A stretch of 54,587 bases of DNA from Planctomycetaceae bacterium (GTDB lineage Bacteria > Planctomycetota > Planctomycetia > Pirellulales > Thermoguttaceae), in the NCBI GenBank assembly GCA_031283515.1, contig JAITBS010000077.1, positions 1 to 54,587 on the forward strand, written 5' to 3'. This document shows positions 3,201 through 34,989 of this stretch, one piece after another. A program made the translations under genes and the position numbers. Every line of letters starts with the position of its first letter. Within the stretch, counting starts at the first letter, position 1. Below the pieces are notes generated by a model that searched no databases, was not told the origin of the DNA, and saw only the letters and a program-made list of their open reading frames with translations.

Positions 3201-4144
3201 CCGACCGTTTTTGACAACGACGGCAAATTGTCGATCAACGAATAACCGAAACGTTTTTCAAACAAATCAGGAATTTCGCCGTTCCATGTAACCCAAGTTC
3301 CGACATAGGAACCGGCTGGATGCGGTTCATCGGTGAAGATTCCGGGAACACGATTACCGAATTCTTTTTGAATTTCGGGAACGTTTTTATAAGCATCAAG
3401 AGTAATATCAAGAAATTTTTCCGTAACGCCTTTTTTCAAGAGATCAACATACCATTTTCCGCCGAACCAACCGCCTTGCGGTGTGTACTGAACTTTTCCG
3501 AGCAGATATTTTTTGCCGTTTGGCAATGGTTCGAGTTTACCGGAATTTTTTGTTTCGCCGGTGATGTTTTTATACGAAATATTGTTATCTTGATTGTTAT
3601 CTTTATTATTATCTTGATTATTATCTTGCGGGCAAAAAACGTACCGGATATTTTTGTCCAACTGATCCAATTTCGTAACTTCCTCAAATTTCAATCCCAT
3701 TCCGCGTGAATCGGGCAATGCTTCAGGAACAAGTCCTCCGGCAAAACCGCTTGGGTAGGAATTTTCGTCGTAAATCCAGACATTCATATCAAGTTTTTGC
3801 GCTTCGTCGAGTGCGGTTTTCCAACGGGCGAACCATTCGTCGGAGAGGTAAGGCGTCATCAAACCGGGTCTTGGGTGAACCCAAACTTGCCGGACATGTT
3901 GTTGAGCGAGATCGCGAAGTGTTCCGCGAACTTGTTCATCGGTTAATCGGTCATTCCAAGTCCAAAGCGGACCGGTACTGAAATCACGCGGCGGATTCTT
4001 AAAATTTTTCTGTAACTCCTCCAAAGTCGGATTTGTGATCGGGTTCAGTTTTGAGATTTGCGCCGCAGCAGTTACAACGTTAAGAAAAAATACAGCAACA
4101 AAAATAATCGCCGCAACCAACAATCTGAAAAAATTTGTTCTCAT
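281..4144 (-). CDS. Large secreted glycoside-hydrolase-like protein (N-terminal signal peptide, TIM-barrel-like N-domain, discoidin/F5-8-type-C-like segment)
   Basis: Uninterrupted 1287-aa ORF. Hydrophobic N-terminus LLVAAIIFVAVFFLNVVTAAAQ. Motifs WTWNDRL...VWVHPRPG...WIYDENSYPSGFAGG recall GH106/GH2-sugar-binding-annotated proteins. The family assignment comes from memory only. Confidence 0.7.
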   Translation of the reverse strand: MRTNFFRLLVAAIIFVAVFFLNVVTAAAQISKLNPITNPTLEELQKNFKNPPRDFSTGPLWTWNDRLTDEQVRGTLRDLAQQHVRQVWVHPRPGLMTPYLSDEWFARWKTALDEAQKLDMNVWIYDENSYPSGFAGGLVPEALPDSRGMGLKFEEVTKLDQLDKNIRYVFCPQDNNQDNNKDNNQDNNISYKNITGETKNSGKLEPLPNGKKYLLGKVQYTPQGGWFGGKWYVDLLKKGVTEKFLDITLDAYKNVPEIQKEFGNRVPGIFTDEPHPAGSYVGTWVTWNGEIPDLFEKRFGYSLIDNLPSLSKTVGDWKKVRHNYHQLILELFAERWAKPYFERCEKYGLEFTGHYWEHGWPNTSHGPDNMAMYIWSQRPAIDLLMNTYNDKSPNAQFGNVRSVKELASVANQMGHSRTLSENYGAGGWDIRFEDLKRLGDWSYALGVNTNNEHLSYVTIKGARKRDHPQSFSYHASWFEGYHILADYFTRLSYMLSQGRQVNRIVVIEPTTTAWMYQGDPKLNEIGQSFTDFVNALEHAHVEYDLASEDIIKRFGKIKGKEFIINQAKYDMVIIPPNTENLNSETAELLSLYHNNGGKLILVETEPNLCDGASPKDANVFKVSHKKVTNRDRRRGVKEGTTHFKFTIHSVKDAVEIAKERTNKDGLTITTYPLTTEATYREKDAKHIFHHRRRFADGEVLFFCNSSQTDEAQVSIKPNENYPFFKFWYFCSLETGEMVRAEEWDNSSYNFSIPLYPSGSLLLIFSNKAIGEQNMWRRNIDWDMIRSISETKIRRLEDNVLTLDYVDVKVGNEERQDIYTWAANRFVFQKHGMESGNPWDSQVQFKDELITKKFPENSGFEATYHFTLQESVPKNLAVVIERPDLYRIYCNDKEVQAIPNAWWLDKAFGKIDLSQVAKVGENNVKIVAQPMTIEHELEPAYLLGDFSLQNSEKGFTVVPPQDLSMNFPDSNKTLNHNEEPDHVAWLSAGVDFRSDKPELVDRSPTLEFDFGREQEIAAIRIWNYNERNLKQRGVKTVEITGLGKIDLPIGDGSAYELPFNSSQKFKTITFKILSNHNGATYPIRENEQPKDNGFVGLAEVQFWTKENNVLTLIKNVLVRTSSELVTDSHDRKASYLADGSGFNAFKPTWNQQGMPFYAGKVEYSQTFNVEKIDSAKNYFVGFPLTPKGLNWSVHGSTVQIMVNGQSAGFFISANQSIEVTKLLREGNNEISMIVYGTPKNLLGPHHAGAMRGQAWPNAFHRAPEHQPSGASYDTIGYGLFEPFVLISY

Positions 4145-24639: not shown

Positions 24640-24879
24640 ATGATTTATAGTATGATTTTTGGTTTTATGTTTGGTGCTAGTCCGTTTGCTTATATTATTT
24701 TAGCGGTGGTAGCTTTTTTATTTTTTGGTAATCGCCTGCCAAGTGTGATGCGTTCACTTGGGCGAAGTGTGGTCGAATTCAAAAAAGGTGTCGCCGGTAT
24801 TGAGGATGAGTTGGACGAAGCGGTTCGAACCGCAGACGAAAAAGCAACCGCAAAATCCAACGAAAAAACGGAGGTTTGA
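24640..24879 (+). CDS. tatA: Twin-arginine translocase subunit TatA/E
   Basis: AAAGGAG SD sequence. TM helix followed by FGNRLPSVMRSLGRSVVEFKKG. Confidence 0.85.
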   Translation: MIYSMIFGFMFGASPFAYIILAVVAFLFFGNRLPSVMRSLGRSVVEFKKGVAGIEDELDEAVRTADEKATAKSNEKTEV

Positions 24880-24880
24880 G

Positions 24881-25174
24881 ATGGGTTGCTATCTGTTTCT
24901 AACACCTACTCCGTTTCAGATTGTAGTAGTTTTGGTATTAGGGGTTTTATTTTTCGGTAAAAACCTCCCCGATGTTGCACGGCAAATCGGGTTGGGGTTA
25001 ATGGAATTGAAAAAAGGTCTGAATGAATTCAATGACCTGTCAAAAAATGTAACCAATCGATATTCCACCAAAAAATCCTCAACAGCAAACAAACCAACTG
25101 ATTCCAGTGACGAGGAAACAGAAAAATATGAATTGACCGGTACAAAGTTCGAACCGCCCACTTTCTCAGAATAA
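24881..25174 (+). CDS. Second TatA/TatB-family paralogue
   Basis: GGAGG SD sequence, and the ATG lies 1 nt after the tatA stop. FFGKNLPDVARQIGLGLMELKKG. Confidence 0.75.
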   Translation: MGCYLFLTPTPFQIVVVLVLGVLFFGKNLPDVARQIGLGLMELKKGLNEFNDLSKNVTNRYSTKKSSTANKPTDSSDEETEKYELTGTKFEPPTFSE

Positions 25175-25323: not shown

Positions 25324-26355
25324 GTGTTTTTTATGGTTGTGTTTTTCAAATTACCGGTACAATGTGAACTTGCTCATCCTCACGATTTACTTGCACGGCG
25401 TTTTCTTCTTGATAAAGAGTTGATGGCGAGTTTGTTGAAACATTACGATAATACAGGTGTTGTTCGATTACTTGATCTTCAAGCATTACGGTGTGAATCT
25501 CCAACCACAATAGACAGCCAATTACAGGAAGTCATTGGCGATTTGCGCTTTTCCACAAAATTCAAAAACGGTGCTTATTCGAAAGTGTTCCTGTTTTTTG
25601 AACATCAATCAAAAAAAATTAAATTATATTCGCTTCACTGTTTACGTAAAATATTGGAATTTTACGAAGAATGGGCGGACAACCCTCAAAACGCTATCAC
25701 CGAAAATGGTAAATTTCCGTATCCGCTTGTTGTGGTACTTTATCACGGAGATATTTCATGGAGTGAAGTGTTGCAAATAAAAGATTTAATTGCCGTACCA
25801 CAAGGTGTGGATAGTAACGTGTTATGGTTCCAGATTATTGTAATTGATTTGTCAAAAATTCAACGCGAAAAATTACAAGGACATCCGGCACTCATTGCTC
25901 TTTTTGATACATTACAATCGTATTCGGAAGGAAAATTACCGGAAAGTCTGGAGCGAATCGTCGGATACTTCAACGAAGTTAAAACAGACCCACGAACAAT
26001 AGGTTGGCTAACTTCCATCGCCCATTACGTGTTGGCAGCCGCTAAAATCAGTAAAGATGTTATTGTTCGTGAATTTTCAAAAATTATAGATAAAAAAGGA
26101 GCTGAAAAAATGATTATGTCAACGATGGAAGAATTGTACACAAATGGAAAAATTGAAGGAAGGACTGAAGGCGAAGTTGAAATTTCAATTAAGAATATTC
26201 TTAAATTACTCAACAAACGCTTCAAACGAGTTCCAAAATCTATTTCGAGTGCTGTTAATTCTTATACGGATATTGTGGAGTTGGATTCCCTTTTTGATCG
26301 GGCGTTGGAATGTAAAACGTTGACAGAATTTGAACGAGACCTTGCGCACCGTTGA
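25324..26355 (+). CDS. Rpn-family recombination-promoting nuclease / putative transposase (PD-(D/E)XK, YhgA-like)
   Basis: N-terminal HPHDLLARRFL, DLRF....G....FLFFEHQSK, and a helical C-terminal module. The start (GTG 25324 or ATG 25333) is uncertain. Confidence 0.85.
   Translation: MFFMVVFFKLPVQCELAHPHDLLARRFLLDKELMASLLKHYDNTGVVRLLDLQALRCESPTTIDSQLQEVIGDLRFSTKFKNGAYSKVFLFFEHQSKKIKLYSLHCLRKILEFYEEWADNPQNAITENGKFPYPLVVVLYHGDISWSEVLQIKDLIAVPQGVDSNVLWFQIIVIDLSKIQREKLQGHPALIALFDTLQSYSEGKLPESLERIVGYFNEVKTDPRTIGWLTSIAHYVLAAAKISKDVIVREFSKIIDKKGAEKMIMSTMEELYTNGKIEGRTEGEVEISIKNILKLLNKRFKRVPKSISSAVNSYTDIVELDSLFDRALECKTLTEFERDLAHR
26110..26355 (+). CDS. Possible intragenic RpnS-like small ORF (same frame as the Rpn gene)
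   Basis: In-frame ATG preceded by AAGGAGCTGAAAAA. The same translation-initiation region heads the two downstream cassettes. Confidence 0.4.
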   Translation: MIMSTMEELYTNGKIEGRTEGEVEISIKNILKLLNKRFKRVPKSISSAVNSYTDIVELDSLFDRALECKTLTEFERDLAHR

Positions 26356-26424
26356 AATCATTGTGATATTTCCTGCTGGAAAGTTCAGAACGAATTGTCG
26401 AATACTTTGCAAGGAGCTGAAAAA

Positions 26425-26730
26425 ATGATTATGTCAACGATGGAAGAATTGTACACGAATGGAAAAATTGAAGGCTGGACTGAAGGAAGAATTGAAGGAA
26501 AAATCGAAGGAAGAATCGAAGGAAGAATTGAAGGAAGAATTGAAGGCGAAGTTGAAATTTCAATTAAGAATATTCTTAAATTACTCAACAAACGCTTCAA
26601 ACGAGTTCCAAAATCTATTTCGAGTGCTGTTAATTCTTATACGGATATTGTGGTGTTGGATTCCCTTTTTGATCGGGCGTTGGAATGTAAAACGTTGACA
26701 GAATTTGAACGAGACCTTGCGCATCGTTGA
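26425..26730 (+). CDS. Free-standing copy of the Rpn C-terminal module (RpnS-like), 7 tetrapeptide repeats
   Basis: Near-identical to 26110-26355 except for a 60-bp repeat expansion. Has its own AAGGAG-N8-ATG. Confidence 0.6.
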   Translation: MIMSTMEELYTNGKIEGWTEGRIEGKIEGRIEGRIEGRIEGEVEISIKNILKLLNKRFKRVPKSISSAVNSYTDIVVLDSLFDRALECKTLTEFERDLAHR

Positions 26731-26799
26731 AATCATTGTGATATTTCCTGCTGGAAAGTTCAGAACGAATTGTCGAATACTTTGCAAGGAGCTGAAAAA

Positions 26800-27033
26800 A
26801 TGATTATGTCAACGATGGAAGAATTGTACACGAATGGAAGAATTGAAGGCGAAGTTGAAATTTCAATTAAGAATATTCTTAAATTACTCAACAAACGCTT
26901 CAAACGAGTTCCAGAATCGATTTCGAGTGCTGTTAATTCTTATACGGATATTGTGGAGTTGGATTCCCTTTTTGATCGGGCGTTGGAATGTAAAACATTG
27001 GCGGAATTTGAAGAAGGCCTTGTGTATTTTTAA
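26800..27033 (+). CDS. Second free-standing copy of the Rpn C-terminal module, 1 tetrapeptide repeat and a diverged C-terminus
   Basis: Same SD/ATG context. The last ~12 codons differ (LAEFEEGLVYF). Confidence 0.6.
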   Translation: MIMSTMEELYTNGRIEGEVEISIKNILKLLNKRFKRVPESISSAVNSYTDIVELDSLFDRALECKTLAEFEEGLVYF

Positions 27034-33366: not shown

Positions 33367-34989
33367 ATGATTTCTGTTACTCAATTCCTAGATTTATTAC
33401 GCCGCAGCGGGTTGATCGATTCCGTCAAACTCGATGAAGCGTTGGCATCCATTGAATCGGAAGCAACAGAAGGACAATTAGATGATGTACAATATGTTGT
33501 TTCGGCATTGGTTAAACGTTATCTGTTGACAGTCTGGCAAGTGAAACAACTCCTGAAAAAACGCTATAAAGGTTTTTTTCTCCGTCAATACAAAATATTA
33601 GGACATCTTGGCACCGGCGGAATGAGTTCCGTGTATCTCGCCGAACACACCTTAATGCAACGCCGTGTTGCAATTAAGGTGTTACCGCGAAAACGGCTTG
33701 AGAAGTCGATTTATCTTGAGCGTTTTATTCGTGAAGCCCAAGCAATTGCCTCACTTGACCACCCCAATATTGTTCGAGCTTACGACATCGACCACGAAGG
33801 CGATCTCCATTATATTGTGATGGAACATTTTGCCGGTGAAAATTTGCAGAAAATTATCGAAAAAGAAGGAAAAATTACCTTTGCCCGAATCGCTAATATT
33901 TTACGTCAAACTGCCAATGCATTGGCTTATGCTCATGCGGTAGGAGTTGTTCATCGCGATGTGAAACCAGGCAACATTCTCGTCAATACACAAGGTGAAG
34001 TTAAAATTCTTGATCTTGGTCTTGCCTTGTTGGATGAACATCTTTACGAAGGACGTATCACACATATTCAGGAAGATACTATTTTAGGAACTGCTGATTA
34101 TTTAGCACCGGAACAAGCTCTGGATAGTCATAAAGTTGATGCCAGAGCTGATATTTATTCATTGGGAGGTGTTTTGTATTTTTGTTTAACGGGGCATCCG
34201 CCATTTCCTAACGGTTCTGTATCGAAACGGCTGTTAGACCATCAGCAAAAAGAACCGCCAAGTGTTCTTATTGACCGACCCGATACACCGGAAGATTTGG
34301 TTTTTCTCTGCCAAAAGATGATGTCCAAACACCCCAAAGATCGGCAACAATCAGCAATAGAAGTTGTACAGGATTTCGAAAACTGGCTTGTTAAATACGG
34401 TTACGCCGAACCCAATGAATTTTCACCGCCGAATTTCTCCGCGTTTGCTTCATGGAAAGCGGACAAGAGATTTTTCGGTGCAACATCAACACCAAACATC
34501 CAACGTGGAAAACTTTTACAAATTCTGCATCAAATGGATATGCAAGAAGCACGGAAAAGTAATACCGAATCAACAGGACATGATTCGGATTTTTCGATTC
34601 TTGGCGGGGATGTCAATGTGAATCTTTTGGATTCGGTACACGGATCGAGTATGTTTTCCCAAACGAGTCATTCGGGGGCGAGTCGTTCTTTAGCCGGCGG
34701 GCAAGGAGAATTTGACGATTCGGCTCTTCGCACTCTCAACGAAATTGAAAAAGCACGTTCCCATTTCCGCCGCCAAAACCTTGCTTCGGCAACTTCCCCA
34801 AAAACATCCAAACCGGAAACAATAAAAAAGTTGGAACCGGCAACGAAGCCAAAACAAGGAATTGATATTTGGTATCGTCATGTTCCGGTGTGGTTTTGGA
34901 CATTGTTCCTTTCTGGTTATGCTGCGGCGATTTTTCTTGCTGGAATTTTGGCAACTCTTATCGTTTTCATCGGAACAACTCGAAAATAG
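33367..34989 (+). CDS. Ser/Thr protein kinase with a C-terminal transmembrane anchor
   Basis: GTGGMSSVYLAEH, VAIKVL, HRDVKPGNILV, DLGLA, APE. C-terminal TM segment WFWTLFLSGYAAAIFLAGILATLIVFI. Confidence 0.9.
   Translation: MISVTQFLDLLRRSGLIDSVKLDEALASIESEATEGQLDDVQYVVSALVKRYLLTVWQVKQLLKKRYKGFFLRQYKILGHLGTGGMSSVYLAEHTLMQRRVAIKVLPRKRLEKSIYLERFIREAQAIASLDHPNIVRAYDIDHEGDLHYIVMEHFAGENLQKIIEKEGKITFARIANILRQTANALAYAHAVGVVHRDVKPGNILVNTQGEVKILDLGLALLDEHLYEGRITHIQEDTILGTADYLAPEQALDSHKVDARADIYSLGGVLYFCLTGHPPFPNGSVSKRLLDHQQKEPPSVLIDRPDTPEDLVFLCQKMMSKHPKDRQQSAIEVVQDFENWLVKYGYAEPNEFSPPNFSAFASWKADKRFFGATSTPNIQRGKLLQILHQMDMQEARKSNTESTGHDSDFSILGGDVNVNLLDSVHGSSMFSQTSHSGASRSLAGGQGEFDDSALRTLNEIEKARSHFRRQNLASATSPKTSKPETIKKLEPATKPKQGIDIWYRHVPVWFWTLFLSGYAAAIFLAGILATLIVFIGTTRK

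Follow-up and report, generated by a model that had tools for sequence, protein, structure and literature searches.

The stretch of DNA analysed here (the window, 54,587 nucleotides (nt) in full) comes from a Planctomycetaceae bacterium (GenBank assembly GCA_031283515.1, contig JAITBS010000077.1, positions 1-54,587), and all coordinates given below refer to it. It carries a gene for an Rpn-family nuclease, rpnL, which is followed directly by two free-standing tandem copies of its own 3' end, the module that in Rpn systems is expressed separately as the small antitoxin RpnS. We consider it probable that this is an ordinary locus of the known Rpn family of toxin/intragenic-antitoxin phage-defence systems, in which the 3' module was duplicated twice, and that the extra copies are likely to be of a different specificity.

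Three copies of the RpnS module

The open reading frame (ORF) coordinates that a preliminary description had drawn from the letters of the sequence were confirmed, and the triplicated cassette described there was confirmed by repeat finding, TRF and MAFFT. AAGGAGCTGAAAAAATG was found at positions 26096, 26411 and 26786, which gives periods of 315 and 375 nt as described before; the cassette starts proposed there (26098, 26413 and 26788) have to be shifted, as they fall 2 nt inside the repeat, at GGAG. The in-frame ATG at 26110 has AAGGAGCTGAAAAA directly 5' of it, the same 17-mer stands before the ATGs at 26425 and 26800, and AAGGAG-N8-ATG is common to all three module starts. That both downstream ORFs duplicate the RpnS module, as had been claimed, is borne out by their DNA identity. 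Outside a 60-nt insertion made of 12-nt units, copy 2 agrees with copy 1 in 241/246 nt (98%); copy 3 agrees with it in 218/234 nt (93%), lacks 12 nt and has diverged over the last 45 nt or so. Since a repeat of about 300 nt is shared at 93-98% identity, the triplication lies far beyond chance.

The three modules differ in the repeat helix and the last one also at its C-terminus, in agreement with the preliminary description. The helix unit is G-[KR]-[IT]-E and the repeats begin at module residue 13; among the homologs the number of units varies, which alters the length in steps of 4 aa, and there are 3, 8 and 2 units in modules 1, 2 and 3 respectively, and the 12-nt tandem array of module 2 (26461-26546) amounts to 7.2 copies according to TRF. 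The diverged C-terminal tail of module 3 reads AEFEEGLVYF. An AlphaFold2 (AF2) model of module 2 has a long helix at residues 3-58, followed by three short helices (predicted local distance difference test, pLDDT, 79); what the AF2 models contribute is the layout of the helices only, and their confidence is moderate. The EG-rich repeat helix of four amino acids (aa) per unit attracts spurious matches to 'FliH flagellar assembly protein' (26425-26730; likewise P0121 and P0123), with NCBIfam E values of 2e-4 to 8e-3 that are far under the cut-off, and small homologs bear similar names at JGI. The FliH label is a recurring misannotation of free-standing RpnS-like proteins.

The long ORF spans 25324-26355 (343 codons). 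Its GTG at 25324 is an alternative start, and the true start of rpnL is likely to be the ATG at 25333, which agrees with the N-termini of homologs. Spacer 1 is composed of about 30 nt of ancestral 3' flank and about 25 nt that resemble a decayed coding remnant from upstream of the internal start; the first part is similar to the flank 3' of copy 3 and to the flank of the orthologous locus L001 (see below). The possibility that the small ORFs are remnants of Rpn paralogs that have lost their N-terminal part was rejected, because the spacers are identical and consist of the gene's own 3' flank plus the coding remnant of about 25 nt. The parts of the locus are listed in Table 1.

Table 1. Parts of the rpnL locus and their coordinates in the window
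Feature	Coordinates	Strand	Basis or remark
rpnL, full-length Rpn/YhgA-type PD-(D/E)XK nuclease, 340 aa	25333..26355	+	Pfam, hhalign, aligned catalytic residues
Internal Shine-Dalgarno AAGGAG and ATG 26110, candidate start for intragenic RpnS	26096..26112	+	Conservation
Module 1, intragenic RpnS, 81 aa, 3 four-aa helix units (GKIE GRTE GEVE)	26110..26355	+	
Spacer 1, 55 nt	26356..26410	+	Letter-for-letter equal to spacer 2
Module 2, free-standing rpnSs-1, 101 aa, 8 helix units, own AAGGAG at 26411	26425..26730	+	
Spacer 2, 55 nt	26731..26785	+	Letter-for-letter equal to spacer 1
Module 3, free-standing rpnSs-2, 77 aa, 2 helix units, own AAGGAG at 26786	26800..27033	+	

Membership in the Rpn family

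Residues 19-222 of RpnL match the Pfam family Transposase_31/YhgA-like (PF04754; E 2.2e-24, 86.6 bits, cut-off 21). When a profile of 27 homologs was aligned with E. coli RpnA/B/C/E by hhalign, a probability of 98.3% and an E value of 2.5e-14 were obtained over 270 columns, in a span that begins at the HPHD motif, takes in the internal Met and extends into the EG-repeat helix. D18, D70, E90 and Q92 of RpnL align with D11, D63, E82 and Q84 of RpnA and are invariant in the 27 homologs; RpnA mutated at D11, D63, E82 or Q84 is inactive (Kingston et al. 2017, PMC5350276). The name Rpn family nuclease is borne by 118 homologs, and the closest proteins (identity of 81% or less) are all annotated 'Rpn family recombination-promoting nuclease/putative transposase' and reside in metagenome-assembled genomes (MAGs) of Planctomycetaceae. 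By these comparisons rpnL is a bona fide member of the Rpn family, and the Rpn/YhgA-type identity proposed for it earlier stands, with the four catalytic residues conserved. RpnL falls far short of the cut-offs of the NCBIfam equivalog models (RpnA and others), and it is therefore not an ortholog of any E. coli paralog. An exact-protein look-up with RpnL returned no identical protein on record. The isolate names of the relatives' MAGs (Roe453, Ct408, Im510 etc.) suggest insect or termite-gut metagenomes as their origin.

Conservation of the internal start

The in-frame Shine-Dalgarno (SD) sequence and ATG at 26110, which had been pointed out as a start of the last codons of rpnL, are conserved in the clade. 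In 65 of 66 modules, which represent the window and some 60 loci related to it at protein identities as low as about 36%, GGAG is located 7-9 nt 5' of an ATG that has the same place in the alignment, and both GGAG and ATG are kept whichever residues those codons spell (KGAEKM, KETENM, KEAEKM, QETQKM and others). Met260 of RpnL is invariant in the 27 homologs, and in the hhalign alignment ATG 26110 lies at most 3 residues from the position aligned to M244, the internal translation initiation site of E. coli RpnA. Zhong et al. (2023, PNAS, PMC10400941) demonstrated the gene-within-gene expression of RpnS for E. coli and for C. difficile, and the conservation described here is strong sequence-level evidence that this clade uses it as well.

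Free-standing modules among relatives

An architecture scan based on hidden Markov models covered 102 related loci. The close clade was taken as the loci with at least 50% identity, and it contains 30 complete loci with enough downstream sequence. Related genomes were surveyed for the same tandem cassettes, as the preliminary description had suggested, and a free-standing module was found in a third of these loci (10/30, the window included), the window being the sole one with two; an array outside this set, L106, is described below. Of the 9 loci with one free copy, 8 have a free module whose length departs from that of the intragenic module by a multiple of 4 aa. Contigs L020 and L025 stop less than 60 nt beyond their free copy. 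At the rpnE locus of E. coli, more than one free copy was found in none of 5,420 complete genomes, and a metagenome scan returned only relatives at 46% identity or less, among which there were no intact free copies and two decayed remnants (L059, L077).

A search with the module 2 protein led to L106, a Planctomycete-like contig with three tandem modules of 93, 93 and 81 aa. The differences between the L106 copies lie mostly in the repeat helix. L106 is a second, independent three-module array and the sole other multi-copy example found, and it is metagenomic. The contig (L106 1-1040; JGI 3300042605, Ga0466716_127675) begins inside module 1 and has a Planctomycete-type SBP_bac_10 gene adjacent to the array; its spacers of about 70 nt are nearly identical and keep about 13 codons of upstream coding sequence.

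Most free modules resemble their own neighbour best. The top BLAST match of module 3 is the intragenic module beside it; for module 2 that module comes second, because the gap in repeat length lowers the score. In most one-copy loci, too, the free copy matches the adjacent intragenic module best; exceptions are L012 and L026, in which the free copy is older and more diverged and its neighbour does not come first. Where a free module is most similar to its own neighbour, this indicates local duplication. The age of the two window copies can be judged from L001, a syntenic ortholog (TatA-TatA-rpn-LarC, about 82% protein identity) that has no free copy, so that both are a recent gain of this lineage, by tandem duplication. 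The 3' flank of L001 matches the flank after window copy 3. States at the end and in the flank of copy 3 are shared with L001, and copy 3 therefore keeps the ancestral 3' end of the gene.

Copy 3 has a mosaic appearance. Its divergence from copies 1 and 2 is about 2% over the first 230 nt or so and about 27% over the last 45 nt; its end (26985-27033, compared with 26310-26355) has several states in common with L001, and the tail DLAHR of copies 1 and 2 resembles more distant paralogs. This pattern suggests gene conversion or recombination among Rpn C-termini.

An older free copy is found in L012 and L013, which are collinear orthologous loci of two MAG species with 83-85% DNA identity. The ratio of nonsynonymous to synonymous substitution rates (dN/dS) between them is 0.28 for the free rpnSs, 0.27 for the intragenic module and 0.13 for the nuclease domain. 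The free rpnSs (L012 5105-5362 in Roe453_bin113 and L013 3066-3323 in Im510_bin74) is intact and 85 aa long in both, and the intragenic modules beside it are of 89 and 97 aa; thus the free copy held its length while the resident helix changed. Free copies can accordingly be old and, to judge from the purifying selection that the ratio of 0.28 indicates, functional.

Many MAG contigs of the clade end in or just past Rpn C-terminal modules (L009, L017, L020, L025, L038-L041). L009 has the same gene order upstream as the window (TatA-TatA-rpn, 87% identity); it stops exactly at the internal start, at its position 3950. Short-read assemblies are probably broken up by modules in several copies, and the frequency of arrays is for this reason likely to be underestimated. 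L045 (JAITFH010000038.1, assigned to the bin Nm470_bin99, 'Mycoplasmataceae bacterium') has at its end a fragment with 64% identity to the N-terminus of the window Rpn, which probably reflects a binning error or a transferred copy.

Comparison with described systems

The preliminary description had regarded the arrangement as undescribed. This does not hold, since free-standing downstream copies of rpnS have already been published (Zhong et al. 2023, PMC10400941). According to that work, ypaA/rpnESs downstream of rpnE is a second copy of RpnES, the protein of which was detected, and rpnC in some strains also has a downstream copy, rpnCSs. Such copies, which are annotated DUF4351, arose independently, each from the adjacent rpn gene, and they are gained and lost among strains, with loss through deletion or through fusion with the N-terminal domain. 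It was also found there that the number of 4-aa repeats is variable in RpnS and in free-standing RpnSs, that RpnCL is blocked only by RpnCS of equal repeat number, so that one extra repeat abolishes neutralisation, and that RpnS normally exceeds RpnL in E. coli (PMC10400941).

We therefore compared the window with these loci. In MG1655, ypaA opens with the duplicated AAAAGGAGAGATTAATG, 12 nt past the rpnE stop codon, and has one extra KLEG unit relative to the intragenic RpnES. In both organisms a small gene on the same strand lies directly downstream of rpn (rpnE-ypaA and rpnC-rpnCSs in E. coli); it duplicates the last rpn codons and starts with the copied internal SD/ATG, it derives from the adjacent gene and not from another paralog, and the number of its 4-aa helix repeats is unlike that of the intragenic copy. 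Because rpnE-ypaA is built alike, the anatomy of the window is the published one, except that there is a second free copy. The two differ in several respects: the window has two tandem free copies and three helix lengths (3, 8 and 2 units); it has a 55-nt spacer that recurs along with the module, and in E. coli only 12 nt lie between rpnE and ypaA; its modules are longer (77-101 aa, against about 57-61 aa in E. coli), and the model shows a fourth short helix; and its host belongs to the Planctomycetaceae. Only the copy number, which is unusual, goes beyond the literature (two free copies with three helix lengths). The locus is a quantitative variant of a described arrangement and a modest extension of the one-copy rpnE-ypaA of E. 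coli.

With the RpnL/RpnS systems of the Rpn family in general (PF04754, COG5464) the window shares a PD-(D/E)XK N-terminal domain with D, D and E-x-Q, the conserved second half of the Transposase_31 domain, a conserved internal SD/ATG, as well as a C-terminal tail that varies, with a long 4-aa-repeat helix 13 residues past the internal Met; many paralogs per genome are a further common trait. The repeats of RpnS begin 8-20 residues past the initiating Met (Zhong et al. 2023, PMC10400941). RpnL is only about 21% identical to the E. coli Rpn proteins, and its family does not conserve the PDDE motif of E. coli RpnA (D165). Stand-alone DUF4351 (PF14261) proteins, which NCBI names 'Rpn/YhgA-type helix-turn-helix domain-containing protein', are like the window modules small, helical and equivalent to the Rpn C-terminal module, although the window modules score under the Pfam cut-off.

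A parallel outside the family is offered by the HsdS subunits of EcoR124I and EcoR124II, to the TAEL repeats of which Zhong et al. reportedly liken the RpnS repeats in their discussion. In both cases the specificity changes according to how often a helical repeat of 4 aa (12 nt) occurs. In contrast to Rpn, however, the repeats of HsdS govern not the pairing of toxin and antitoxin but the spacer length of the DNA target of a type I restriction enzyme, and the sequences are unrelated.

Neighbourhood and expression signals

Two small ORFs are located directly 5' of rpnL, at 24640-24879 (Pfam TatA_B_E) and at 24881-25174, the latter without a Pfam match. They occur in the same order in L001 and L009, where the stretches matching the second ORF are weakly similar to TatA1 (26-33% identity). 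No second Rpn gene was found in the window, and the Rfam and tRNA scans of the window were empty. The only PADLOC match among the neighbours tested is a Ser/Thr kinase (33367-34989), which matched kinase-type defence models (PD-T4-6). Since Ser/Thr kinases of this kind are common in Planctomycetes, it was not accepted as a defence gene.

No terminator-like site was found within the module array, and co-transcription is on this ground the simplest model of expression. The RNA of the spacers (26340-26413 and 26715-26788) is predicted to fold in such a way that CCUUGCG in the last codons of the preceding ORF pairs with UGCAAGG overlapping the next SD (minimum free energy -22.7 kcal/mol, z -2.2; 5 of 200 shuffles fold as well). 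This is weak evidence that such pairing could couple the translation of each free copy to the termination of the preceding ORF.

Proposed mode of action

By analogy with the E. coli systems, RpnL would act as a PD-(D/E)XK DNA endonuclease toxin. Its last 81 codons would be translated separately from the SD/ATG at 26110 to give RpnS, which would bind the matching C-terminal helix of RpnL and block it. The 3' module, together with its SD/ATG, its stop codon and a short flank, was duplicated in tandem twice, giving two rpnSs genes of the ypaA type, and slippage of 12-nt units would then have set the free copies to 8 and 2 units, the resident gene having 3. The modules are most likely co-transcribed with rpnL, each being initiated at its own copy of the SD. 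Because one extra repeat abolishes neutralisation in E. coli, the 8-unit and 2-unit proteins are predicted to be poor blockers of the 3-unit RpnL. Modules 2 and 3 would more likely be RpnS paralogs of other specificity, pairing with themselves or with 8-repeat or 2-repeat variants of RpnL, and they would also be substrates for homologous recombination, leading to deletion or to fusion to the nuclease domain. A distinct specificity is preferred to simple dosage because the length mismatch is nearly universal in the relatives, because ypaA is mismatched too, and because an old mismatched copy is conserved. As to what the mismatched specificity serves, the candidates are RpnL of other alleles or paralogs, an influence on the release of the toxin, or no purpose at all.

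Discussion

The alternative that deserves most attention, doubtful as it appears to us, is that the free copies are neutral by-products of unequal crossing-over at short homologies, possibly stimulated by the recombination-promoting nuclease itself, and that they have no role and are to be lost or to decay. The two copies are indeed very young (2% and 7% DNA divergence), the syntenic ortholog L001 lacks them, dN/dS of the window copies is uninformative or near 1, the distant relatives L059 and L077 show only decayed remnants, and gain and loss of rpnSs among strains is on record (Zhong et al., PMC10400941). On the other hand, both ORFs are intact together with their SDs and start codons, free copies are present in a third of the close-clade loci, those of relatives outlast speciation under purifying selection (dN/dS 0.28), and the YpaA protein of E. 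coli is made (PMC10400941). That the array is an artefact of assembly, in which strain variants of differing repeat number were concatenated or the true copy number is not three, we hold to be very improbable. The array is present on a single contig, and related MAG contigs often break at or just past the modules (L009, L020, L025). However, the longest exact run between copies is 115 nt, and k-mers of 116 nt or more are all unique; they span each junction and link copy-specific single-nucleotide polymorphisms across it. A k119-type assembly can therefore resolve the array. A stop-spacer-SD junction is moreover impossible in a single-copy locus, and an array of this kind is seen independently in L106, while nine other loci and complete E. 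coli genomes show it with a single free copy.

Two further explanations assign a role to the copies. If they served as a cassette reservoir, recombination with the downstream copies would switch the helix length of RpnL in one step and re-tune its specificity against phage; a matching RpnS would be created automatically, because the RpnL tail and RpnS are the same DNA. Exact runs of 113-115 nt between the modules can support such recombination, copy 3 is a mosaic, the L106 copies differ mainly in the repeat helix, and fusion of the N-terminal domain with the rpnSs region has been reported (PMC10400941). We nevertheless regard a reservoir as unlikely: it would not be renewable, since recombination between direct repeats deletes copies irreversibly, slippage of 12 nt alters the length without any cassette, and the long-lived free copy of L012/L013 diverged from its neighbour instead of exchanging with it. 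Still less likely, in our estimate, is an effect of antitoxin dosage, by which modules 2 and 3 would simply shift the RpnS:RpnL ratio upwards and, although their helix lengths are different, would neutralise the resident RpnL. Their proteins are nearly identical to module 1 outside the repeats, they carry the same SD/ATG, and in E. coli there is normally more RpnS than RpnL (PMC10400941). Simple dosage is disfavoured by the published length-matching rule, as one extra repeat abolishes neutralisation in E. coli RpnC (PMC10400941), and the length mismatch in 8 of 9 related loci, in the window and in ypaA is unexpected under selection for matched dosage.

Several observations weigh against the preferred reading of a known-type toxin/intragenic-antitoxin locus with extra copies of different specificity. 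The neighbours are housekeeping genes (SecDF, AroA, two TatA, LarC, ArgB, CinA), along with the Ser/Thr kinase, and a defence-island context was rejected on account of these housekeeping neighbours. PADLOC gave no match for Rpn and the modules, the family being absent from that 2023 library, and no sigma-70-like promoter was found on the + strand, in a scan that is uninformative for Planctomycetes. The matches of the modules to DUF4351 (PF14261) reach 17.5-21.8 bits with a cut-off of 25 (E 2e-4 to 4e-3); the domain is carried by three close full-length homologs (P0002, P0015, P0028). Sequence and profile searches of the PDB with RpnL and the family profile gave no match and did not reach RpnA-S (PDB 7TH0), the crystal structure of which is a three-helix bundle dimer (Zhong et al. 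2023, PMC10400941). With Foldseek, the module 2 model had nothing in the PDB at E < 1, small helical domains being poorly detected, and the AF2 model of RpnL (pLDDT 77) had no significant PD-(D/E)XK match; the only weak matches, to Cap4, EndoMS and EcoT38I (E 0.08-1.2), were nuclease-like. The window copies are too young for a selection test, as copies 1 and 2 differ by 5 substitutions and dN/dS between copies 2 and 3 is about 0.9 on 13 changes. The copy number of the array rests on one assembled contig. Finally, the length-matching rule was obtained with E. coli RpnC and one added repeat, and it may fail in this clade.

A more far-reaching idea can be offered only tentatively, as we think it rather improbable. 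Mismatched free RpnSs may, instead of being spare antitoxins, be a selected second layer of the Rpn system, and arrays such as the 3/8/2 array of the window and that of L106 may provide multi-specificity immunity, their diversity in the repeat helix being maintained. Homodimers or mixed dimers could then confer immunity in trans against RpnL of other helix lengths, whether incoming, recombinant or paralogous, or could modulate the release of the resident toxin. The length mismatch, the helix-focused differences and the purifying selection on an old free copy are consistent with it.

To the knowledge of Rpn systems as such the locus adds little, since the gene-within-gene antitoxin, the free downstream copy and the repeat-length rule have all been published. 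It is rather a natural test case for the role of free-standing, length-mismatched RpnS copies, a question left by the published work, as it combines one nuclease with three small proteins that are nearly alike but for the length of the helix (3, 8 and 2 units). The clade supplies further material, in that a third of the close-clade loci have a free copy and one such copy is conserved across two species under purifying selection. Because the modules differ almost only in helix length and this material is at hand, the rule of specificity and the part played by the extra copies can both be tested directly.

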